A model generated the notes under the pieces. That model searched no databases and was not told where the DNA came from. It saw only the letters and a list, made by a program, of their open reading frames with translations. DNA of 15,307 nucleotides from a virus (taxonomy: Duplodnaviria > Heunggongvirae > Uroviricota > Caudoviricetes), in the IMG/VR virus record IMGVR_UViG_2617270953_000003, positions 1-15,307 of that record, one strand, 5' to 3'. How positions within the stretch are numbered: position 1 is the stretch's first letter; the number at the start of each line of letters is the position of its first letter. The position numbers and the translations under genes are program-made. This document shows, piece by piece, positions 1,637 through 14,524 of this stretch.

Positions 1637-2128
1637 TCACTCTCCTTTGATGCGAATGCCAGTGGTACTCATTCTCCTGATTTCCCAGAGCACACGAGGA
1701 ACACCACCGTTTCCGACCGGATCGCGCTTACTCCGCATGGCGACGCTTGATTCCGCCCAGCTTTTTCTTGGAGGAAGCTCTTTCACACGAACAAAACCAG
1801 CTGCGCGAAGAGATGCTCCTGATTCATCTGCCTGGGTGTACGTAATACAACGTTGATAACCCATAGCCTTTGCTGCCCGCCAGACAGCACCATAAAGCGC
1901 GCTGTTAGCGTTGCGTTCTCCTGTGGTACATGTGCGATTTACTTCAAGCGTTAATCCATCGTCCAAATGTCGTGCAACAGGTCGACCAGCTGTCGCCACA
2001 CCTATCAATTCTCCGGCATTATTTCTCAGACCAATGCTGAATTTATGCCCCACTGGTGGTTTATTGTGTCGGTGGTGCTGTGCGATAAATTCCTGCGCCG
2101 CTTTCAGCGTTATAGGTGAAATGACCAT
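1637..2128 (-). CDS. hypothetical protein (163 aa), possibly GNAT-fold-like
   Basis: ATG at 2126-2128 with AGGAGG RBS; overlaps the upstream stop by 1 nt (TGATG). Weak GNAT-like pattern (...GVATAG..., ...ALYGAVWRAAKAMGY...AAGF). Confidence 0.5.
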   Translation of the reverse strand: MVISPITLKAAQEFIAQHHRHNKPPVGHKFSIGLRNNAGELIGVATAGRPVARHLDDGLTLEVNRTCTTGERNANSALYGAVWRAAKAMGYQRCITYTQADESGASLRAAGFVRVKELPPRKSWAESSVAMRSKRDPVGNGGVPRVLWEIRRMSTTGIRIKGE

Positions 2129-2607
2129 CACTCAGACTCCTCCTTGATGCCAGCGGCGCGGGAATCATTCCATCGCTTTACTTCTTCACTAATTACGTCA
2201 ATGCATTCTTTCGAATCCATTAGGTAATCTTCATCAAAAAGACGTTCCTGTTCGTTTTCTATCGCAACAATGATTGCTTCAACTAATTTTTGTGCCTGAG
2301 AATCACTTTCTAACTCTGCAATGCGCTTACTCCCATCCGAGATAACACCTTCGTAATACTCACGCTGCTCGTTGAGTTTTGATTTTGTCTCCTCAAGCTC
2401 AACACGCAGCTTCCCTACCGTTAGCGCAATATCCTCGTTCTCCTGGTCGCGGCGTTTGATGTATTGCTGGTTTCTTTCCCGTTCATCCAGTAGTGCCAGC
2501 ACAACCTGAGGTGTGACCTTCATACGAAATGCCAGCAATTTTTGTGGTGTGGCTGCTATTTTTATTGCTTCTGCCGCATCACGCAGTGCCTGATAGTCAA
2601 TTGTCAT
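2128..2607 (-). CDS. coiled-coil-rich phage protein (159 aa), Ea22-type slot
   Basis: ATG at 2605-2607 overlaps the upstream stop (ATGA). Sequence rich in E/K/R/L/Q heptad-like stretches. Confidence 0.5.
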   Translation of the reverse strand: MTIDYQALRDAAEAIKIAATPQKLLAFRMKVTPQVVLALLDERERNQQYIKRRDQENEDIALTVGKLRVELEETKSKLNEQREYYEGVISDGSKRIAELESDSQAQKLVEAIIVAIENEQERLFDEDYLMDSKECIDVISEEVKRWNDSRAAGIKEESE

Positions 2608-3248
2608 TCTCGCCATCCTTCACAGTTGTAATCACTACAGCCTTCAAAATCATATGGGCTGTACTGCCAGGAGATTTTTCCGCAATGCGGACAATTCCAA
2701 CGCACCTTCCCGCTTCGCGACTTCTTTCTTCTGTTCTGCTCTTTCAACCAGTCAGGCATGACCAAACCTGCGCCCTGAACCATTGTTCTGCGGTTAAAGT
2801 TATTGATATTGAACGTCCTGCGCTTTGCTGCATCAGCAATGGAAAATGGCAACCAAACTATTCCTGGTTCGTTTTTGTTGGCGACGCTAAAGATGGTCGC
2901 TTTACTGAAGTCATCTGTTGGCAATCCACCGTGTTGAAGCCAGTAAACATCGTTGCCGTTCCAGCTACCTTTTTTGTAGGCCACATACGCAGTGCAATCT
3001 GACTCAATCAGGCTTTCTGTAGGGATGTACTGGCAATCAACGTGCCACACTGCCATTGCATCCACGCTATCAGCGCAAACAGGCTGATCGATATCTCGCC
3101 CACAATTCCAGGCTTTTTGGGCTTCTTCCAGCGTGTAAACATGAGCGCGATCGATATCAGAACTGTAACCATTGCCGTTATGGCAATGGAATGAAGCGTT
3201 ATTGCCCACAGTTTCACGCGAGCACATCATGTAAAAACGGTTAGTCAC
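2604..3248 (-). CDS. hypothetical protein with Cys/His clusters (214 aa), GTG start
   Basis: AAGGAGG RBS (plus-strand cctcctt at 3255-3261) 6 nt upstream of GTG at 3246-3248, overlapping the upstream stop (GTGA). C-terminal CPHCG...C...C and N-terminal CHNGNG motifs. Confidence 0.5.
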
Positions 3249-3412
3249 TGGCTGCCTCCTTTGCGCCACATCGCATTCAGATATTTGTTTTCATTCACTG
3301 ATGGAAAAGAATTTCTCTTAAGTAATTCCTCTCTCGATGGCATTGGCTTTACGCGTTGGCGAATAATCATTTCTGCCGGAAGAATGCCGGGATTGTATGC
3401 AAGTCCTCTCAT
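3245..3412 (-). CDS. small hypothetical protein (55 aa)
   Basis: ATG at 3410-3412 with GAGGA RBS at 7 nt spacing; the longer tracked ORF (to 3562) overlaps the upstream gene and lacks an RBS. Confidence 0.35.
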
Positions 3413-3422
3413 GGTAAATTCC

Positions 3423-3716
3423 TCAGTCATTACTGATAGCGCCATAACGTGAGCGGTAATTACGCAGGCGCGGGTCAATTTCAGGGAAGTGGGTATATGT
3501 GGCTTTGCGGAATGGTCGGATTGATGTCTGGTAAATTCGCTCGCGTTCTTCTTTCTCTGCAAGCCATATACAGTGGCGAAATTCCTTTTCCTCTTTCGTT
3601 TCCTGCGGTAGAGACATTATCCGGTCGTAGTTTTTTCTGAATTTATCCAGCACCTCCGATACGGAATTGCCGGAACAGCGGCGCACGTCGTCCGCACCAT
3701 ACAGAGGCGCTGGCAT
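3423..3716 (-). CDS. Abc2-like (anti-RecBCD) candidate, 97 aa
   Basis: Sits promoter-distal to erf, where P22-like phages carry abc genes; similar size to P22 Abc2; AAGGA RBS. Identity is from recall and position only. Confidence 0.45.
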
Positions 3717-3739
3717 AATTAAATCCTTATTGTTCTAAA

Positions 3740-4123
3740 TCAGAATGGGATGGAATCGTCGTATACAGGAGTGTTCTGCTGGTTACTACTTTGCCGCTGC
3801 GGGCCATTTCCTGAAGCTGCAAATCCAATCTTTGCATTCAGTAATTCAAGAGTGATTGATTGACCATTTTGCCCCTGATAAACATCAACCCTGATGTTTT
3901 CTCCGGTAATTTCCACAATTCCACCTTCAACAAGAACACTACGGTAGTAATCCGCTTGCGCTCCCGGCTTGGCAAATACAACGGCGCTGTAGTTTATCCA
4001 TTCTTTCTTTTTTGTCTGGCGATCGTAATACTGAACGCCAGCACGGATGTTGAATCCGATATTTTCCCCGGCCTGAAACTCTCTTGCGGGCTTGTTTAGT
4101 CTTACAGTAATCGAATGTGCCAT
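3740..4123 (-). CDS. ssb: single-stranded DNA-binding protein (short SSB, 127 aa)
   Basis: C-terminal acidic tail ...PVYDDSIPF matches the SSB DDDIPF-type tail; ATG at 4121-4123 overlaps the erf stop (TAATG). Confidence 0.6.
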   Translation of the reverse strand: MAHSITVRLNKPAREFQAGENIGFNIRAGVQYYDRQTKKKEWINYSAVVFAKPGAQADYYRSVLVEGGIVEITGENIRVDVYQGQNGQSITLELLNAKIGFAASGNGPQRQSSNQQNTPVYDDSIPF

Positions 4124-4728
4124 TAAGCAGCCGCTCCTTCTAATTCGTCTCGTCTGATGTTGTAAACGTCCTGCGCTTTGTGCTGCTCCGGTGTGCCTTC
4201 GAGCATCTTCCACGCTTTGGCGAACGCCTGTTTAAGCTCTTCCACGGTGTTTTTCTGCATTGCTGCGTCAGTGAATGCTTTTAGAACCTGTTCAGGTGTA
4301 GGTGATGGTTTTGATTGCTTTGCTGCTGCGTTCTGCTGATGTTTATGCTCGTCTGTATCTGCATCTTTCGCATCATCAATGCCGAACAAACCATTAAGGC
4401 AATACTTGCGCGCATAAGAGCTTGTAGCTCCAGTAACTTGTGCAGAATCCATTCCTTTCTTGCTTTCTTCCTCTCTTGCGAGAGCGGTTGCCGTATGACT
4501 GTTTTCGCCATCGGTAATAGTTGCCGTGGCTTTCACGTAATACCGATCACCAATCAACACAACTTCATCGCTGATTGATAAAAACAGGCCATTCAGTAAC
4601 GGCTTAACGCCTTCAAGAATGTCTTCGCAGCTTCTGTATTTATATTTACCGAATGAGTTGTACTGATTCTTTGGCGCGTTCAGATTCTCCTGAATAGCTG
4701 CCAGTCTTGCATAAAATTCTTTGCTCAT
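4123..4728 (-). CDS. erf: Erf-family single-strand annealing recombinase (201 aa)
   Basis: N-terminus MSKEFYARLA...NAPKNQYNSFGKYKYRSCEDILEGVKPLL matches my recall of P22 Erf; ATG at 4726-4728. Confidence 0.8.
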   Translation of the reverse strand: MSKEFYARLAAIQENLNAPKNQYNSFGKYKYRSCEDILEGVKPLLNGLFLSISDEVVLIGDRYYVKATATITDGENSHTATALAREEESKKGMDSAQVTGATSSYARKYCLNGLFGIDDAKDADTDEHKHQQNAAAKQSKPSPTPEQVLKAFTDAAMQKNTVEELKQAFAKAWKMLEGTPEQHKAQDVYNIRRDELEGAAA

Positions 4729-4829
4729 ATGATTGTTCTCAGAATGGACACGGCCCAAGGAAATAACGCTGATTTAATACTTCTACTCGGGACAAATTAA
4801 GGCATACCCGCATTCCTTCGCGGTCGCCA

Positions 4830-4988
4830 TTATGGCGATACCAGAGAGCTTTCTGCGTGTACATGCGTCTCTGTAACTTGCTCTCCTTCACTGTGGTTGC
4901 AAGTGACATGAATATCTCCTTCGTTACCGATTAAATCTTTCATCTGACGAATGAATTCTTCGTCTGACCAGTTATCTGTAAAACTCAT
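4830..4988 (-). CDS. small hypothetical protein (52 aa) in the kil position
   Basis: ATG at 4986-4988 overlaps the stop of the CIII-like gene (ATGA coupling); no recognisable family. Confidence 0.4.
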   Translation of the reverse strand: MSFTDNWSDEEFIRQMKDLIGNEGDIHVTCNHSEGEQVTETHVHAESSLVSP

Positions 4989-5155
4989 GGGCGGCCTTGT
5001 TGTTTCAAAATATCCCAAAGCTTTTCGAGCAAGCTTTTCATTCTTGGTTGTTTAAAGTCTGCTCCGGTTAAAATATTTTTTCGTGAATGCTGCACCGATA
5101 AAATCGGGTTGAAAGGGCGAACCGATGCCGCCCCTGCAATAGCGAACTGTTGCAT
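4985..5155 (-). CDS. CIII-like protein (56 aa; FtsH/HflB inhibitor family)
   Basis: Start MQQFAIAG resembles lambda CIII MQYAIAG; amphipathic LLEKLWDILKQ segment; AAGGAG RBS 6 nt upstream of ATG at 5153-5155. Confidence 0.5.
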   Translation of the reverse strand: MQQFAIAGAASVRPFNPILSVQHSRKNILTGADFKQPRMKSLLEKLWDILKQQGRP

Positions 5156-5238
5156 AGGATGCTCCTTCTGTTTGATTGCATAACGAAAATGCCTCTCGTG
5201 AAGCATTATTGGTATGCGGTAAAGCCGCGCTTGGCGGC

Positions 5239-5655
5239 TTATTTGAAGATTTCTATGAAATCAAGAACTGATGATATTTCGTGGTTGAACGATTTTCTTT
5301 TGTATCTTTCTATCGCAGAATCCACCTGGTGTTTATAGTCATCGTCGTTTGAGTATTTAACGAAGCATTCTATTGTCTCAGGCGTTACAGCTATAAGGCT
5401 CCACCAACCTTCATCAGATTGATATTCAAATCCCATGCTTTCAAGCCATCCAGCATATTTCCCTCCAGCATCTTGCCAGTGTGTTTTTTCTGCAAGGAAG
5501 CTGTTAACCGTCATATGTGCATCAAGGCATTTATCCAACTGTTTACCATTAAGTAGCCATGCGCTGACAGTTGCACAACCCAAATCAACTGATTGAGTAG
5601 AGATATTGAATTGGTCGTAATTATCTGGATTAACCAGAATATCTGTAATTTTCAT
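5239..5655 (-). CDS. hypothetical acidic, Trp-rich protein (138 aa), ea10-position cargo
   Basis: ATG at 5653-5655 with GGAGG RBS at 4 nt; immediately preceded by an intrinsic terminator; no family recognised. Confidence 0.55.
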   Translation of the reverse strand: MKITDILVNPDNYDQFNISTQSVDLGCATVSAWLLNGKQLDKCLDAHMTVNSFLAEKTHWQDAGGKYAGWLESMGFEYQSDEGWWSLIAVTPETIECFVKYSNDDDYKHQVDSAIERYKRKSFNHEISSVLDFIEIFK

Positions 5656-5667
5656 AATTCCTCCGTC

Positions 5668-5696
5668 AAAAAAATTGCCCTCACACTGGAGGGCAA
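5668..5696 (-). terminator. intrinsic terminator within the pL operon (8-bp stem ttgccctc/gagggcaa, 6-nt loop, T7 tail on minus strand)
   Basis: Perfect 8-bp inverted repeat at 5675-5682 and 5689-5696 with an A7 run at 5668-5674 (T7 on the minus strand). Confidence 0.6.
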
Positions 5697-5830
5697 AGAA
5701 GATTTCCAATAATCAGAACAAGTCGGCTCCTGTTTAGTTACGAGCGACATTGCTCCGTGTATTCACTCGTTGGAATGAATACACAGTGCAGTGTTTATTC
5801 TGTTGTTTATGCCAAAAATGAAGGCCACCA

Positions 5831-6031
5831 TCAGGCAGCCTTGTTGTTCTGTTTACCAAGTTCTCTGGCAATCATTGCCGTCGTTCGTATTGCCCATTTA
5901 TCGACATATTTCCCATCCTCCATTACAGGAAACATTTCTTCAGGCTTAACCATGCATTCCGATTGCAGCTTGCATCCATTGCATCGCTTGAATTGTCCAC
6001 ACCATTGATTTTTATCAATAGTCGTAGTCAT
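5831..6031 (-). CDS. ral: Ral restriction-alleviation protein (66 aa)
   Basis: Sequence MTTTIDKNQWCGQFKRCNGCKLQSEC... matches my recall of lambda Ral; correct size and position downstream of N. Confidence 0.6.
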   Translation of the reverse strand: MTTTIDKNQWCGQFKRCNGCKLQSECMVKPEEMFPVMEDGKYVDKWAIRTTAMIARELGKQNNKAA

Positions 6032-6159: not shown

Positions 6160-6543
6160 TCATCTCGCCGTCAGTTGTTTTGATTTCCGGTATCCTGCTG
6201 CGTAAAGAGCTACATTTGGAAGACATACACCAGTTTCTGGTTGCTTATGTCCAAACTCATTCGCGTACACAATGGCCGCTCTCTCCAGATTGCGTCTGTA
6301 TTCTTTCTGTTGCCAGATCACGTCCTGTGCCATGAACTTAATTGGCTTAGCGTCTTCTATGCGCTCAGGCGTTTCGTGAGTACCTTTAGCCTGAATCTGC
6401 GCTCTGCTTAGAGTAGGGCGGTGTAATACTTCTGAACTTATTGCTTCTTCGCGGGCCAGTACGCCGTTAGCTAATGCCTTTGCCTTTAAACGCTCACGAC
6501 GACGAGAACGTGAATTGCCTTTGAACTGAGTTCTGCGTGTCAT
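6160..6543 (-). CDS. N: N-type transcription antiterminator, P22 gene-24-like (127 aa)
   Basis: AGGAGG RBS 6 nt upstream of ATG at 6541-6543; N-terminal arginine-rich motif RRTQFKGNSRSRRRERLKAK; C-terminus ...VALYAAGYRKSKQLTAR resembles P22 N; first gene after pL and nutL. Confidence 0.7.
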   Translation of the reverse strand: MTRRTQFKGNSRSRRRERLKAKALANGVLAREEAISSEVLHRPTLSRAQIQAKGTHETPERIEDAKPIKFMAQDVIWQQKEYRRNLERAAIVYANEFGHKQPETGVCLPNVALYAAGYRKSKQLTAR

Positions 6544-6671
6544 ATAGACCTCCTGGTGAACTTTGGCGGTGAATACAGCCGGGCGACTAACTCCGGTAGC
6601 GTAATCATTGCAAAGCGCCTCCGCCGAGAAGGTTAGCTTCTGCATTCACCCCAAAGTTCACTTTGGTTATT

Positions 6672-6754: not shown

Positions 6755-6817
6755 AGTATCACCGCCAGTGGTATTTATGTCAACACCGCTAGAGATAATT
6801 CATCACCGCAGATGGTT
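6755..6817 (-). promoter_or_regulatory. OL1-OL2-OL3 operators and pL promoter (lambda immunity type)
   Basis: 17-mers tatcaccgccagtggta (6757-6773), caacaccgctagagata (6781-6797), catcaccgcagatggtt (6801-6817); on the minus strand -35 TTGACA (6778-6783) and -10 GATACT (6755-6760). Confidence 0.85.
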
Positions 6818-7003: not shown

Positions 7004-7382
7004 TTAGGAATCAAGGTCAGGTAGCATGATTTTCTCAATCAACGTCAATGCCCTTTGGTCTCGTTCAGCAAAATATTTAGGAGCGTACTGAGGCAGCCAC
7101 ACTTCGTTGAAGTATTGTTTGAAATCTGCAATATTCGTTTGGGTATAGACGTACCGGGAATGTCCGGCCATCTGGGTACTCATGGTTATATGTTGGGAAT
7201 GTCTTCGGCTCACCCCCCCGGTTGTCACGGAGCCATTGCGAGAAAACCCTACCCTCTGAAATATCAGGGACCATTTTTTCTGGCAGCGTATATCCGGCCT
7301 GTTCAAGTGGCGCAACCAAGTTAAACGTCAGTTCATTAAGCATAGAAAAGTGCGTATGAGGAACTCTGCCTCGGTTTGTCAT
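7004..7382 (-). CDS. rex-slot ORF split across two frames: frame A 7077-7382 (101 aa) and frame B 7004-7327 (+1 offset); possible frameshifted gene
   Basis: Two overlapping minus-strand ORFs offset by +1 share a C7 tract (7213-7219; G7 on the coding strand) and an A6/T6 tract (7275-7280). Frame B ends 10 nt before the terminator; frame A has a poor RBS. Confidence 0.35.
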
Positions 7383-7421: not shown

Positions 7422-7763
7422 TTAACCTGACATCCACTCACGCACCCATCTCGATACTTGCACTGCAAATTTTGGAGATAGCCACTGAGCTAAATTAATT
7501 GCGATGTCTGGATGAACCCAAGTCCCTTGATTCTCTGCTCTTCCGCCTTTAAATGATTGAATTAACTCCGATATGGGAATCCCCATATCGCGTGATAATT
7601 CATCAAAAAAATCTTGTGTTGTTTTTAGTCGTGTATAGTCAGCAAGTAGCTTCCCCGCAGACTTGCACATCGCGGTGGCATTGATGTATCCGTCTTTGGT
7701 GCGAAGATGGATGACTTCTCCATCAACTTCTCTAGCGATTAATGCAAGTTGAAATTGTGTCAT
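7422..7763 (-). CDS. KilA-N domain protein (113 aa), directly downstream of cI
   Basis: Motifs DGYINATAMCK...GTWVHPDIAINLAQWLSPKFAVQVSRWV are typical of the KilA-N (APSES-like) DNA-binding domain; AGGA RBS; starts 31 nt after the cI stop. Confidence 0.75.
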   Translation of the reverse strand: MTQFQLALIAREVDGEVIHLRTKDGYINATAMCKSAGKLLADYTRLKTTQDFFDELSRDMGIPISELIQSFKGGRAENQGTWVHPDIAINLAQWLSPKFAVQVSRWVREWMSG

Positions 7764-9275: not shown

Positions 9276-9437
9276 ATGACAAAACGTCGTAAGAAATACC
9301 AGGAAAAAGAAGAGATTCGACACCCTGATTCACCTGAGGGATTAGTGGTAGCCGCAGCAAATAACAGGGCGTTCGCAGAGCGCCTTGTTGGTGTTTACAG
9401 ACTAGCCAAAGTAGGAGTGAAACATGGGCGTCGTTAA
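9276..9437 (+). CDS. small basic ORF (53 aa) between cII and the replication gene
   Basis: Hand-translated MTKRRKKYQEKEEIRHPDSPEGLVVAAANNRAFAERLVGVYRLAKVGVKHGRR; CAGGAG RBS 5 nt upstream of the ATG; 3' end overlaps the replication-gene start by 14 nt. Confidence 0.35.
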   Translation: MTKRRKKYQEKEEIRHPDSPEGLVVAAANNRAFAERLVGVYRLAKVGVKHGRR

Positions 9438-10314
9438 GTTAGCTGATTACAGGCATAACCCTGTACAACATCAGGAGGCATCCAGTATGGGGTATGTCTC
9501 TATACACCGCCAGTTTATGGACAGCAGGCTCTATAAGGACTCTCAGGCAGTACATCTTTGGCTTCACTTAATCCTCAAGGCTAATCACGAATCTACTGTC
9601 GTCAATACGGATATCGGTCCGATAACTGTTGATCGCGGTCAGATGATAACTGGACGCCCGTCGCTGGTCAGAGAAACATTCATCCCCGACAACAAAGTTC
9701 GGAGCTTATTACGGACTTTTGAGTCGAAAGGTATGCTTAATATTTGCTCGATGGGGAAGAAATTTAGCCTGTTTACAATCGTTAAATATGACGATTTTCA
9801 GGCAAAAAATTGTCCAACGGTTGTCCAACAGTTGTCCAACGCAAACACCAGTAATGGTGCGGCTCTCAGCGGAGATTGTCCAACGGTTGTCCAACAGTTG
9901 TCCATAAACAATAATATAAATAATATCTCTAATACTGACGTATTAGAGAGTGCTACAGCAGACAAAAAGTCTGACAAGAAAAAACCTTCCGTCAGCTGTC
10001 AGGATGTTGTCGATGCTTACCACGAAATCCTTCCTGAAGCGCCAAGAATCCGCGCACTGAATGACAAGCGTAAAAACCAGATCCGAACGTTCTGGCGCAA
10101 AGCCGGAGTGATAACCCGCCAGCTTGACGGACATGGGTTCACGATGCAGGACTGGAGAAATTATTTGAGCTACGTAGGCGAAAATTGCCGATGGATGTTC
10201 GAAGAGCGTCCAAACCATCAACGCGGAACTGTCTGGCACAAAAAGGGATTTGATTTCCTGCTTAACGATAATACCTACCTGAAAGTTCGTGAGGGTGAAC
10301 ACGATGACCGATAA
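9424..10314 (+). CDS. replication initiator (O-like, non-lambda allele) with the origin inside the gene
   Basis: AGGAG RBS; O-type N-terminal region; iteron array embedded in the coding sequence (encoding repeated CPTVVQQLS); followed by a DnaB-family helicase gene. Confidence 0.8.
   Translation: MGVVKLADYRHNPVQHQEASSMGYVSIHRQFMDSRLYKDSQAVHLWLHLILKANHESTVVNTDIGPITVDRGQMITGRPSLVRETFIPDNKVRSLLRTFESKGMLNICSMGKKFSLFTIVKYDDFQAKNCPTVVQQLSNANTSNGAALSGDCPTVVQQLSINNNINNISNTDVLESATADKKSDKKKPSVSCQDVVDAYHEILPEAPRIRALNDKRKNQIRTFWRKAGVITRQLDGHGFTMQDWRNYLSYVGENCRWMFEERPNHQRGTVWHKKGFDFLLNDNTYLKVREGEHDDR
9810..9950. repeat. origin iterons: two copies of a 3 x TTGTCCAAC array (9810-9840 and 9876-9906) plus AT-rich tract (9906-9950)
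   Basis: ttgtccaacGGttgtccaacAGttgtccaac occurs twice about 66 bp apart (last unit of the second copy is ttgtccata), followed by aaacaataatataaataatatctctaatactgacgtattagag. Confidence 0.8.
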
Positions 10315-11740
10315 TTTTTATGCGCCGCCCCATAGCATCGAGGCAGAGCAGGCGGTGATTGGTGGATTGCTTCTGGATGATGACAGCAGTGAGCGCGTCC
10401 AGAAGGTTCTGGCGATGCTGAAGCCTGATTCATTTTACAGCCGGCCACACAAAATCCTTTTCGAAGAAATAACCAGAATGCACCGGGAGCAAAAGCCAGT
10501 AGATGGCCTGACGCTTTTCGATGAACTGGAGCGTAAATCGTTAACTGTGTCTGTTGGCGGTTTTGCTTATATCGCTGAGATCGCAAAGAACACGCCAAGC
10601 GCAGCAAACATCGTTGCCTATGCAATGCAGGTTCGTGAAACCGCAATGGAACGCTACGCCATCAACCGCATGACTGAAGCGACGGAATTGCTCTATTCCC
10701 GCAACGGAATGACTGCAACGCAGAAGTACGAAGCTATTCAGTCGATTTTCACGCAACTGACAGACCATGCAAAAACCGGATCGCGTCGCGGCCTTCGTTC
10801 ATTTGGTGAGGTCATGGAAGACTGGGTTAGCGACCTTGAGAAGCGATTTGACCCATCAGGCGAACAACGGGGAATGAGCACAGGGATCCCATCGCTGGAC
10901 AGGATGCTGTCACCGAAAGGTCTGGTGAAAGGCTCTCTGTTTGTCATTGGCGCTCGCCCTAAGATGGGGAAAACGACGCTATACAGCCAGATGGCAATCA
11001 ATTGCGCAGTGCATGAGAAAAAGCCCGCTTTGATGTTCAGCCTTGAAATGCCAGGTGATCAGATACTGGAAAAACTGGTAGGGCAGAAGTCTGGTGTTAA
11101 CCCGAATATTTTTTACCTTCCGGCGACAAATGACGCTGATGACGGCTATCAGGGTGATTACGATGGTGACTTCAACAGGGCGATCGAAACAGCCAATCGC
11201 TTGAGTGAAATCGACCTGCTTTACATCGACGACACGCCGGGATTATCTCTGGCTCAAATCGTCAGCGAAAGTCGTCGAATCAAGCGAGAAAAAGGATGTG
11301 TTGGCATGATTCTGGTCGATTACCTGACACTAATGACCGCTGAGAAGGCCGATCGCAACGACCTTGCTTACGGCATGATCACCAAAGGACTGAAGAACCT
11401 TGCCAAAGAGCTTGATTGTGTTGTTGTGCTTCTGACACAGCTTAACCGCGCACTGGAAAGCCGAACCAATAAACGCCCATTACCAAGTGACTCCCGAGAT
11501 ACAGGGCAGATTGAACAGGATTGCGATTATTGGGTTGGGATCCATCGTGAAGGTGCTTTTGATGACAGTGTTCCACCTGGTGAAACCGAACTAATCCTTC
11601 GTCTCAATCGTCATGGCAATACCGGCACGGTGTATTGCATTCAGGCAAATGGAGCTATTTATGACACAGACCAACAGTCTGCTGAAATGCGCCGCCGTGA
11701 ACGCGAGGAACCGCAGTCCAAGAAGAAAGGAGGATTCTGA
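10304..11740 (+). CDS. DnaB-family replicative helicase (P22 gene-12-like), 478 aa
   Basis: N-terminus ...FYAPPHSIEAEQAVIGGLLLD... is the classic DnaB start; Walker A GARPKMGKT; ATG at 10304 overlaps the end of the upstream gene. Confidence 0.9.
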   Translation: MTDNFYAPPHSIEAEQAVIGGLLLDDDSSERVQKVLAMLKPDSFYSRPHKILFEEITRMHREQKPVDGLTLFDELERKSLTVSVGGFAYIAEIAKNTPSAANIVAYAMQVRETAMERYAINRMTEATELLYSRNGMTATQKYEAIQSIFTQLTDHAKTGSRRGLRSFGEVMEDWVSDLEKRFDPSGEQRGMSTGIPSLDRMLSPKGLVKGSLFVIGARPKMGKTTLYSQMAINCAVHEKKPALMFSLEMPGDQILEKLVGQKSGVNPNIFYLPATNDADDGYQGDYDGDFNRAIETANRLSEIDLLYIDDTPGLSLAQIVSESRRIKREKGCVGMILVDYLTLMTAEKADRNDLAYGMITKGLKNLAKELDCVVVLLTQLNRALESRTNKRPLPSDSRDTGQIEQDCDYWVGIHREGAFDDSVPPGETELILRLNRHGNTGTVYCIQANGAIYDTDQQSAEMRRREREEPQSKKKGGF

Positions 11741-11768: not shown

Positions 11769-11800
11769 AGGCCTGCTGGTAATCGCAGGCCTTTTTATTT
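11769..11800 (+). terminator. tR2-like intrinsic terminator (8-bp stem aggcctgc/gcaggcct, 8-nt loop, TTTTTATTT tail)
   Basis: Perfect inverted repeat at 11769-11776 and 11785-11792 followed by a T-rich run, between the helicase gene and ninB. Confidence 0.65.
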
Positions 11801-11816
11801 GGGGGAGAGGGAAGTC

Positions 11817-12257
11817 ATGAAAAAACTAACCTTTGAAATTCGATCTCCGGCACATCAGCAAAACGCTATTCACGCAGTACAGCAAATCCTTCCAGACCCA
11901 ACCAAGCCAATCGTAGTGATCATTCAGGAGCGCAACCGCAGCTTAGACCAGAATCGGAAGCTTTGGGCTTGCCTTGGTGACGTCTCTCGTCAGGTTGAAT
12001 GGCATGGGCGTTGGCTGGATGCAGAAAGCTGGAAGTGTGTGTTTACCGCAGCATTAAAGCAGCAGGACGTTGTTCCTAACCTTGCCGGGAATGGCTTTGT
12101 GGTAATAGGCCAGTCAACCAGCAGGATGCGTGTAAGCGAATTTGCGGAGTTATTAGAGCTTATACAGGCATTCGGTACAGAGCGTGGCGTTAAGTGGTCA
12201 GACGAAGCGCGACTGGCTCTGGAGTGGAAAGCGAGATGGGGAGACAGTGCTGCATGA
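11817..12257 (+). CDS. ninB: NinB (Orf family recombination mediator)
   Basis: Protein MKKLTFEIRSPAHQQNAIHAVQQILPDPTKPIVV... matches my recall of lambda NinB; real start is the internal ATG at 11817. Confidence 0.9.
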   Translation: MKKLTFEIRSPAHQQNAIHAVQQILPDPTKPIVVIIQERNRSLDQNRKLWACLGDVSRQVEWHGRWLDAESWKCVFTAALKQQDVVPNLAGNGFVVIGQSTSRMRVSEFAELLELIQAFGTERGVKWSDEARLALEWKARWGDSAA

Positions 12258-12781
12258 CTATCAAATCAAATACGCCAGCACACGACAAGGACTGCTGGCA
12301 AACGCCGCTCTGGCTTTTTGATGCACTGGATATTGAGTTTGGATTCTGGCTGGATTCGGCAGCGAGCGACAAAAATGCTCTGTGCGCTCACTGGCTAACT
12401 GAGGCTGACAACGCGCTCAATTCTGAGTGGATAAGCCACGGTGCAATCTGGAATAACCCACCGTACAGCAATATCAGGCCGTGGGTGGAAAAAGCCGCTG
12501 AGCAGTGCATACAACAGCGACAGACGGTAGTGATGCTTGTGCCAGAGGATATGTCAGTCGGATGGTTCAGCAAGGCTCTGGAGAGTGTTGACGAAGTTCG
12601 TATTATCACTGATGGACGGATTAATTTTATCGAACCATCGACAGGGCTGGAGAAAAAGGGAAACAGCAAAGGCTCCATGCTGCTGATTTGGCGACCGTTC
12701 ATCAGTCCTCGACGGATGTTTACTACCGTATCCAAAGCGGCATTGATGGCGATCGGGCAGGGCGTCAGGAGGGCAGCATGA
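12254..12781 (+). CDS. dam: phage DNA N6-adenine methyltransferase (Dam family), in the ninC/ninD slot
   Basis: Catalytic NPPY motif (IWNNPPYSN); ATGA overlap with the ninB stop; size about 175 aa. Confidence 0.8.
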
Positions 12782-13127: not shown

Positions 13128-13842
13128 GTTAATAAATGGCAATGCCATCAAAATGACAAGCATTGAAATCGCTGAGTTGGTTGGTAAGCGTCATGACAAT
13201 GTGAAACGTACCATCGAAACGCTGGCTAAAAATGGTGTTATCCGGCTTCCTCAAATTGAGGATTGTGGAAGAATCAATGGGTTAGGCTTAAATCAAAGTT
13301 TTTGTGTGTATGTATTCGAAGGCGAACAAGGAAAGCGAGACAGTATTGTCGTTGTAGCCCAGTTGTCGCCGGAATTCACCGCTCGTCTTGTTGACCGTTG
13401 GCGAGAGCTTGAAGAAACTGCGGTTAATATCCCCAAAACGCTACCAGAAGCGTTGCGCCTTGCTGCTGATCTTGCTGAGCAGAAAATGCAACTGGAAAAC
13501 CAGCTCGCAATTGCCGCACCTAAAGTTGAGTTTGCCGATCGCGTTGGCGAGGCCAGCGGAATTTTGATTGGAAACTTTGCAAAGGTTGTTGGAATTGGTC
13601 CAAACAAACTGTTTGCGTGGATGCGCGATCACAAAATCCTTATTGCTTCAGGTTCCCGGCGCAATGTGCCAATGCAGGAATATATGGATCGCGGCTATTT
13701 CACAGTGAAAGAAACAGCGGTCAACACAAATCACGGAATACAGATATCGTTCACCACAAAAATCACCGGCCGTGGTCAACAGTGGCTGACCAGAAAGCTG
13801 CTCGATAACGGAATGCTGAAAGTAACAGGGGAGGCTGCTTAA
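13120..13842 (+). CDS. phage antirepressor-like protein (Rha-type N-terminal region plus KilAC/ANT-type C-terminal region), Roi-like, 240 aa
   Basis: N-terminus ...MTSIEIAELVGKRHDNVKRTIETLAKNGVI... is Rha-family-like; C-terminal half resembles antirepressor KilAC; GAGGAAG RBS; overlaps the ninF end. Confidence 0.65.
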   Translation: MNELINGNAIKMTSIEIAELVGKRHDNVKRTIETLAKNGVIRLPQIEDCGRINGLGLNQSFCVYVFEGEQGKRDSIVVVAQLSPEFTARLVDRWRELEETAVNIPKTLPEALRLAADLAEQKMQLENQLAIAAPKVEFADRVGEASGILIGNFAKVVGIGPNKLFAWMRDHKILIASGSRRNVPMQEYMDRGYFTVKETAVNTNHGIQISFTTKITGRGQQWLTRKLLDNGMLKVTGEAA

Positions 13843-14132
13843 TGGCTAACCTACGCAAAGAAGCGCGCGGCAGAGAATGCCAGGTACGTATTTACGGCGT
13901 ATGCAATGGTAATCCTGAAACTACAGTTCTGGCACATTACCGGATGGCTGGAATTTGCGGAACGGGAATGAAGCCTGACGACCTGATCGGCGCATGGGCT
14001 TGTAGCGCGTGTCACGATGAAATCGATCGACGTACCCATAACCTCGACAACAAAGACGCCAGACTTTACCACCTCGAAGGCGTAATCAGGACGCAGGCGA
14101 TACTGCTGAAGGAGGGGAAGATTAAGTCATGA
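13842..14132 (+). CDS. ybcO: YbcO-like DUF1364 protein (putative nuclease, 96 aa)
   Basis: MANLRKEARGRECQVRIYGVCNGNPETTVLAH...CSACHDEIDRR resembles DLP12 YbcO; TAATG overlap upstream and ATGA overlap downstream. Confidence 0.7.
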   Translation: MANLRKEARGRECQVRIYGVCNGNPETTVLAHYRMAGICGTGMKPDDLIGAWACSACHDEIDRRTHNLDNKDARLYHLEGVIRTQAILLKEGKIKS

Positions 14133-14524
14133 AAACCTACCGAATAAAATTGCCGTGGCCTCCTTCAAACAACCGATATTGGCGACACTCAAGAGGGATC
14201 CACTACATCAGCGACTGGGGGAAGAGATACCGAAAAGAAGTAATCGAATTAATCCAGCAACAACAGCTAGACATCAAAATCACACCTCGCATCAGAATAA
14301 CCATCCACGCAGCACCTCCCGATAACCGCAAACGAGATTTGGACAATCTGCCCAAAGCCGTTTTTGACGCACTCACCAGTGCGGGCTTCTGGCTGGATGA
14401 CGGTCAGATAGACGATATGCGCATCAAGCGCTATCAGGCGATTAAAGGTGGAATGCTTGTGTTGGTTGTGACTGAAACATGCGGGAGTTTGCCAATGATT
14501 ACAGAGCTACTGGAGGCCGCATGA
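14129..14524 (+). CDS. rusA: RusA Holliday-junction resolvase (131 aa)
   Basis: M.TY.I.LPWPPSNNRYWRH...RDLDNL.KAVFDALTSAGFWLDD matches the RusA signature. Confidence 0.85.
   Translation: MKTYRIKLPWPPSNNRYWRHSRGIHYISDWGKRYRKEVIELIQQQQLDIKITPRIRITIHAAPPDNRKRDLDNLPKAVFDALTSAGFWLDDGQIDDMRIKRYQAIKGGMLVLVVTETCGSLPMITELLEAA

Follow-up and report, generated by a model that had tools for sequence, protein, structure and literature searches.

Erf, Abc2 and a predicted divergent SSB: very probably the HK97-type recombination genes of a lambdoid phage or prophage

Which genes take the place of lambda exo, bet and gam in this virus, and how might they act together? The window (the whole stretch of DNA that was analysed, 15,307 nucleotides) comes from a lambdoid phage or prophage of mosaic make-up and represents its early region. 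The best whole-window matches are HK106, mEp506, mEp234, HK542, HK97 and HK022, together with Stx-converting phages, with segments that are about 95-97% identical. The left half of the window is transcribed leftwards, with ea-type genes downstream of the recombination genes, and cI, cro, cII, O, a DnaB-like helicase gene and genes of the nin region are found in the right half. We are highly confident that the locus as a whole is a recombination module of the HK97/HK022/HK106 type, with the order cIII, ORF A/ORF B, erf, ssb, abc2 and a DUF2737 gene. The features are given below from pL in the direction of leftward transcription, with the replication genes at the end.

6783..6755, leftward: lambda-type pL promoter, TTGACA-17-GATACT
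6160..6645, leftward operon, downstream of pL: N-like antiterminator gene
5831..6031, leftward operon, downstream of pL: ral
5239..5709, leftward operon, between ral and cIII: gene without assigned function
4985..5155, minus strand: cIII, 56 aa (PHROG 550, E 2e-22), with AGGAG upstream of the ATG at 5155
4830..4988, minus strand: ORF A, 52 aa, acidic (PHROG 2123, E 1e-41)
4739..4909, minus strand: ORF B, 56 aa (PHROG 1723, E 9e-36, full length)
4123..4728, minus strand: erf, 201 aa, ATG at 4728..4726 and stop TAA at 4125..4123
3740..4123, minus strand: putative ssb of the HK97 gp40 or 'SSB-1b' family, 127 aa, ATG at 4123..4121 and stop TGA at 3742..3740
3423..3716, minus strand: abc2 by homology, 97 aa, with AAGGA before the start
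3245..3412, minus strand: DUF2737 gene, homolog of HK97 gp38, 55 aa (Pfam PF10930, E 8e-32)
9424..11740, right half of the window: O/P replication genes

A sequence-only reading of this DNA had placed the recombination genes in the position of lambda exo/bet/gam, and this placement is borne out. The leftward early operon holds them downstream of pL, the N-like gene, ral and cIII and upstream of the ea-type genes, and no homologs of exo, bet or gam were found among the window ORFs searched against Pfam and the PHROGs. The same searches of the window ORFs found no nuclease gene in the module, and an Rfam scan of the window gave no match. The upstream border of the module is cIII, as in lambda, P22 and HK97. 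On the downstream side of abc2 the DUF2737 gene adjoins, in the same order as in HK97, HK106 and HK75. The genes for an annealase, an SSB and an anti-RecBCD protein are thus contiguous in the early left operon and come without a nuclease, which is the arrangement of the class 'anti-RecBCD + SSB + SAP'. A survey published in Genome Research in 2025, which covered 325 lambdoid phages, assigns 27 phages to this class with HK75 as the prototype, and it gives HK97 gp40 the name 'SSB-1b' from its predicted structure alone (PMC12315714).

The module is ordinary and already described, and there is nothing new in it. Its DNA is 97-98% identical to that of HK106, HK97 and Stx1a phages, with matches in 224 phage records. 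Among 5426 complete E. coli genomes, at least 556 carry it at a query coverage of >=80%. Both erf and abc2 have been annotated in HK97 and HK022 since their publication. The pairing of Erf with an SSB had been put forward as notable, a view that has to be given up: it is the standard arrangement of HK97, HK022 and HK106 and has been classified as such (PMC12315714).

The annealase is of the P22 type, as had been proposed. The erf product scores 151.6 bits with the Pfam ERF family (PF04404) over residues 5-143, where the curated cutoff is 25 (E 2e-44), and it also matches PHROG 155 (E 2e-57). Aligned along its full length with P22 Erf, it shows 75% identity (E 7e-111). By homology it is a member of the ERF superfamily of single-strand annealing proteins. 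The likeness to P22 Erf is spread unevenly: identity reaches about 92% in the N-terminal 120 residues, whereas the final ~40 residues belong to another sequence type. An AF2 model (pLDDT 82.8) has an N-terminal alpha/beta domain (about residues 1-120), which is probably the annealing domain; residues 125-141 are a disordered linker, and residues 145-200 form a three-helix domain at the C-terminus. In a Foldseek search of the full-length model against the PDB no match was obtained at E<=1e-3, Red-beta and Rad52 included, and this search lends no support to a likeness between the C-terminal domains of Erf and Red-beta. Used alone as a search query, the Erf C-terminal domain returned just 10 near-identical fragments.

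For the 97-aa gene at the abc2 position the earlier call had been 'Abc2-like', with similarity to Abc2 as the test, and the result is stronger than that wording. Aligned along its entire 97 residues, the protein shows 93% identity to P22 Abc2; it spans positions 1-97 of 97 of Pfam PF11043 (Anti-RecBCD_p2; 209 bits, E 9e-63) and matches PDB 8B1T/8B1U (E 4e-57 for 8B1T chain A). Judged by its sequence it is Abc2 itself, the ortholog of the P22 protein. The complex of P22 Abc2 with RecBCD has been solved as 8B1T, and the Abc2-RecC structure was published together with a model for the hijack of the host enzyme (PMC9836394). Pro68 of Abc2, which enters the active site of the host PpiB (PMC9836394), is kept in the window protein (...SIRP68FRK...). 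Given its 93% identity to the Abc2 of the solved complex, the window protein would be expected to bind RecC and to abolish the response to Chi.

The 127-aa protein encoded between erf and abc2 lies outside the bacterial-type SSB family as Pfam defines that family (PF00436), at least as far as sequence searches go, since no Pfam family was matched at E<=0.01 or even at E<=10 and a phmmer search of the PDB gave chance-level matches with no SSB chain. No NCBIfam model was matched. The protein does match the broad PHROG 44 (SSB) with an E-value of 8e-25. Five lines of evidence, namely the fold model, the PDB fold matches, a profile-profile alignment, the aromatic residues and the plan of the tail, support the reading that it is a divergent bacterial-type SSB. 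The AlphaFold model, calculated with 34 homologs, has a pLDDT above 90 over most of residues 1-103 and consists of strands, a helix at residues 55-63, further strands and a disordered tail, where residues 107-119 have a pLDDT below 50. Its fold matches in the PDB (Foldseek) are bacterial SSB, mitochondrial SSB or PriB at 9-18% identity, and the predicted fold is an OB fold of the SSB/PriB type. The earlier call of an SSB with a DDSIPF tail had been staked on such a structure prediction, and it has come through, with bacterial SSBs as the best PDB matches.

A plain HMM search keeps the gp40-type family separate from the canonical SSBs. This family is a small, discrete group; a search of 1.84 billion proteins yielded 217 representatives at E<=1e-3. 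Aligned with hhalign, the family profile and canonical SSBs of the phage and E. coli type agree over 67 columns of the fold core (probability 92.3%, E 5.6e-7). In this alignment Y32, Y45, F50 and Y82 are paired with W40, W54, F60 and W88 of E. coli SSB, the residues of that protein that stack on ssDNA. Y32, Y45 and F50 are invariant in the 34 homologs. Because the alignment is a remote one, it is probable but not certain that the four residues correspond to the stacking positions of E. coli SSB. The plan of the protein is an OB domain (residues 1-103), a disordered linker rich in Gln and Pro, and an acidic DDSIPF tip, the C-terminus being ...PVYDDSIPF. Such an acidic-xPF tip forms the C-terminal end in 64 of the 123 full-length family representatives and lies near the end in 12 more, and the family linkers are of variable length and contain 24% Gln and 15% Pro. 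The likeness to E. coli SSB therefore comprises the OB fold, the disordered linker (there rich in Gln, Pro and Gly), the acidic DDxIPF tip and the aligned aromatics. In contrast, the identity in the Foldseek alignments is only about 16%, neither a Pfam SSB nor a PDB phmmer match was obtained, and the window protein with its 127 residues and a linker of about 18 residues is much shorter than E. coli SSB, which has about 178 aa.

The OB domain is under purifying selection, with dN/dS values of about 0.04-0.16 against close relatives. Like the Pfam matches of Erf and Abc2 and the PHROG 44 match of the SSB, this is well outside what chance would give. The start of ssb shares one base with the stop of erf (TAATG), and therefore the translational overlap that had been claimed for the two genes holds. 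The ssb start has GGAG about 11-14 nt upstream.

The closest known systems are those of HK97, HK022 and HK106 (gp42/42.1 - erf - gp40 - abc2 - gp38), which agree with the window in gene content and gene order, at 94.6-98% DNA identity, and in the one-base overlap between erf and gp40. The window differs from this group by its lambda-like 56-aa cIII, by the lack of kil upstream and by I43 of the SSB, where the HK97 group has T43 and more than 90% of the homologs have Thr. The window SSB is near-identical to HK97 gp40 except for the extreme C-terminus, where it keeps DDSIPF while the HK97 reference sequence has DDSNPILI. P22 (arf - erf - abc1 - abc2) has its recombination genes in the same position after cIII, again without a phage nuclease and with an overlap of the erf stop and the next start. 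Besides the different Erf tail, two slots set the window apart from P22: the arf slot is taken by ORF A/ORF B, which do not match Phage_Arf, and the abc1 slot by the predicted OB-fold SSB, which has no similarity to Abc1. One might take the 127-aa gene for a divergent form of P22 abc1, given the shared slot and overlap; this idea was rejected, as BLASTP gave no alignment between the two proteins at E<=100. P22 Abc1 itself matches helix-turn-helix and sigma-70 region 4 profiles.

HK620 (hkaM - sak4 - ssb(HkaK) - abc2) shows the same architecture of a small ORF, an annealase, an SSB with a host-like tip and Abc2, and its Abc2 is 94% identical to that of P22 (PMC5928155, Hutinet et al. 2018). Its annealase is the RecA-like Sak4, in contrast to Erf in the window, and its SSB is only a remote relative of the window SSB by profile-profile alignment. 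The HK620 SSB stimulates annealing and recombineering via its last six residues and is the only SSB in this slot that has been tested experimentally (PMC5928155). We found no experimental work in the literature on SSBs of the gp40 type or on the pair of Erf and a gp40-type SSB. HK75 (gp33 - gp32 - gp31 - abc2) belongs to the same functional class, with an Abc2 that is 98% identical to the window protein. Unlike the window module, however, it combines an annealase with a different N-terminal domain and a P22-type C-terminal domain with a canonical SSB-1 that has a C-terminal extension past DDDIPF.

Is the SSB tied to Erf? A dedicated partnership of the two had been suggested, and the neighbourhoods speak against it, because relatives of the SSB follow other genes and the same Erf C-terminal type also precedes canonical SSBs. 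We surveyed 106 non-redundant Erf loci in IMG/VR, almost all of which have an erf stop that overlaps or abuts the next start. Where an intact Erf gene encodes a C-terminal domain of the window type, an SSB gene comes next in 102 of 102 cases (94 gp40-type, 7 canonical SSB-1 and 1 of a further type). The two P22-type Erf genes in the IMG/VR set are both followed by Abc1. The upstream neighbour of divergent gp40-type homologs is Erf in three cases and a protein of the AAA_24/Sak4 type in one; in this last case, from Leminorella, the SSB gene follows directly with a one-base overlap. Other distant gp40-type SSBs were found after a Sipho_Gp157 protein and after an unannotated 289-aa protein (one each). 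A rule by which the Erf C-terminal type predicts the downstream gene was considered and dropped: it is broken by HK75, where a canonical SSB follows the P22-type domain. We claim no rule that links tail and partner, because of this exception and because independent combinations in the sample number only about four. Cores and tails of the annealases and the types of SSB shuffle freely, and what stays constant is an annealase followed by a tightly coupled SSB with a host-like tip.

How could such a module work? Transcription would proceed leftwards from pL after antitermination of the N type. Abc2 may then bind RecC of the host RecBCD, so that the enzyme would ignore Chi and resect DNA to leave 3' ssDNA tails, a step that we infer from P22 Abc2, for which the Chi-blind, resecting state of RecBCD is experimental (PMC9836394). 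The phage SSB would be made in step with Erf via the TAATG stop/start overlap. It would coat the ssDNA through its predicted OB fold, which appears to retain the aromatic positions of E. coli SSB. The DDSIPF tip may mimic the DDDIPF of the host SSB and recruit Erf, by analogy to the Sak4-SSB pair of HK620 and to the recognition of the SSB C-terminus by RecT; annealases of the RecT family recognise the last 7 residues of SSB (bioRxiv 10.1101/2020.04.14.041095). One may speculate that the three-helix C-terminal domain of Erf is the docking site for this tip. By the same analogy, Erf would displace the SSB and anneal complementary strands. The outcome would be RecA-independent recombination that leads to genome circularisation, the formation of concatemers and mosaic exchange.

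Three rival explanations have to be weighed against this reading, and each of them is less well supported. Abc2 might merely block RecBCD in a Gam-like fashion and shield linear phage DNA, which would leave Erf without a resection partner. The hijack is indeed still a model, in which the loading of Erf by the Abc2-RecBCD complex 'remains to be tested experimentally' (PMC9836394), and both PHROG and RefSeq label Abc2 just as 'anti-RecBCD'. However, the module comes without an exonuclease of its own, and therefore some host nuclease must generate the ssDNA. Moreover, P22 Abc2 leaves the RecBCD helicase uninhibited, and the modified enzyme resembles a constitutively Chi-activated form (PMC9836394). 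We regard a mere block as unlikely. A role of the SSB in phage replication or in the general protection of ssDNA, with the vicinity to erf reflecting a shared early timing, would place the protein outside recombination altogether. Such a role finds a parallel in T7 gp2.5 and T4 gp32, which act in both replication and recombination, and the gene for one gp40-type relative lies downstream of a lambda-P-like replication gene, at a distance of a few genes. Yet in the window ssb sits between erf and abc2 in the leftward operon, away from the O/P genes. The overlap of its start with the erf stop in nearly all relatives, and the Erf or AAA_24/Sak4-type neighbours of the divergent homologs, likewise speak against it, and the SSB in the analogous slot of HK620 stimulates annealing (PMC5928155). 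We regard a replication role as improbable, and somewhat more so than the block of RecBCD.

It is also conceivable that the 127-aa OB protein is a decoy or adaptor. Its DDSIPF would then titrate or redirect the clients of the SSB tail (ExoI, RecQ, RecO, PriA, the chi subunit and others), or the protein would stand in for Abc1 and modulate RecBCD. Several features fit such a function: the gene sits exactly in the abc1 slot with the one-base erf overlap seen in P22, the tip is nearly identical to that of the host SSB, the OB domain diverges strongly from canonical SSBs (identities of 9-18% over the fold matches), and PriB, which is no general SSB, is among these matches. Conserved aromatics at the positions of ssDNA stacking would, however, be needless in a pure tail decoy, and the stand-in variant has to cope with the missing sequence similarity to Abc1, which resembles a helix-turn-helix protein. 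In addition, canonical SSBs occupy the same slot in related modules, which argues for an equivalent SSB function. We consider the decoy to be the least likely of the three, with a low probability. The preferred reading remains that of an Erf annealase that acts with a divergent SSB and with a RecBCD modified by Abc2.

The ssb gene still goes under 'hypothetical protein' in the RefSeq genome records listed, and the evidence supports its annotation as a divergent SSB. Since the compatibility of SSB tails limits the transfer of annealases between hosts, the compact pair of Erf and the gp40-type SSB is also a reasonable candidate for recombineering.

The small ORFs upstream of erf are a further variable part of the locus. 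ORF A is in the position of P22 arf and overlaps the stop of cIII (ATGA), and ORF B lies directly upstream of erf and overlaps ORF A in another frame. To regard either of them as P22 Arf found no support from BLASTP or Pfam, and the idea was dropped: there is a motif of 6-7 residues alone, and what ORF A shares with P22 Arf is just SDEEFI. Neither ORF matches Phage_Arf (PF17585) or any other Pfam family at E<=10, where P22 Arf itself scores 121 bits. ORF A is about 90% identical to HK75 gp33. In the HK75 locus gp33-Erf-gp31-Abc2, gp33 triggers the P2 OLD defence and is a suspected manipulator of RecBCD (bioRxiv 10.64898/2026.07.10.737580). A more far-reaching idea, which we offer tentatively and hold to be rather doubtful, is that the gp40-type SSB and the three-helix domain of Erf form a portable pair, in which the tip would load Erf while competing with the host SSB for clients, and that ORF A would be a further RecBCD manipulator in the role of P22 Arf/Abc1 that is sensed by defences of the OLD type. 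ORF A and ORF B are separate in the window, whereas they are fused in the HK97 reference; of 90 distinct related loci, 78 have ORF B as an ORF of its own, and the fusion to ORF A was seen in the HK97 reference only.

The mosaic boundary between window-type and P22-type modules is located in the last ~40 codons of erf (window 4126..4250, minus strand). It coincides with the junction between the Erf linker and the C-terminal domain and lies within erf, not at a gene border. Since the boundary is inside erf, the C-terminal domain of Erf tends to travel together with the downstream gene. However, HK75 is a counter-example to this joint transfer.

The SSB encoded downstream of erf carries the C-terminal tip DDSIPF, which is also the end of the protein in about 100 relatives. 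The tip is missing from the prototype gp40 sequence because a one-base insertion in the HK97 reference (HK97 locus L001, 3425..3814) leads to the C-terminus DDSNPILI. The copy in HF4s (HF4s locus L002, 2027..2311) contains a frameshift, and its annotation gives a 94-aa 'ssb protein' plus a separate ORF of 36 aa. Residue 43 of the window SSB, within the EW(T)NY motif, is an isoleucine (codon at window 3995..3997), while threonine occupies this position in >90% of 34 homologs; a protein identical to the window SSB, including Ile43, is encoded at one IMG/VR locus. In all eight E. coli RefSeq genome records listed, PGAP names the product of the SSB gene a 'hypothetical protein', placed between an 'ERF family protein' on one side and a 'phage anti-RecBCD protein' on the other. 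One such module is located at:
NZ_CP195960.1 2489742..2491047, example module locus from E. coli RefSeq

In some module SSBs the motif is internal, with DDDIPF followed by APV(T/G)LPFPRHAIHA(I/V). The loci concerned by this tail are:
L163 (HK75 locus) 4910..5416, HK75 gp31
L085 and L101 (other erf-carrying loci), downstream of erf
Two genes past erf, L101 encodes an unrelated Cys-rich protein of 159 aa that ends in nearly the same tail, APVTLPFPRHTIHAI. A C-terminal peptide is common to different Rec-module proteins, namely some SSBs and this Cys-rich protein.

Upstream of erf, the following features were identified:
window 4739..4988, minus strand, ORF A (52 aa) and ORF B (56 aa), conserved small ORFs immediately before erf, overlapping each other in different reading frames
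window 4985..5155, minus strand, cIII, lambda-like version of 56 aa
L001 4430..4681, counterpart of the ORF A/ORF B region in the HK97 reference
Among 90 distinct related loci, the two ORFs remain unfused in 78; in the HK97 reference alone, two extra bases join them into a single gene, annotated as gp42 (83 aa). HK75 gp33 is a homolog of ORF A, and HK75 gp33 has been reported as a trigger of the P2 OLD defence (bioRxiv 10.64898/2026.07.10.737580). ORF A directly follows cIII with an ATGA overlap. A kil gene is absent next to cIII in the window, unlike in HK97, HK106 and HK75.

Between pL and cI, where lambda carries rexAB, two adjacent ORFs resemble the BstA abortive-infection protein (PHROG 6287), one in its N-terminal part and the other in its C-terminal part. 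The pair has the appearance of a BstA-like gene that has been split or disrupted:
window 7077..7382 and 7422..7763, minus strand, BstA-matching ORF pair
The window also contains further DNA-transaction genes:
window 1637..2131, minus strand, Mom-like modification protein
window 11799..12257, plus strand, NinB/Orf recombination mediator
window 12194..12781, plus strand, DNA methyltransferase
window 13842..14132, plus strand, HNH endonuclease
window 14129..14524, plus strand, RusA-like resolvase
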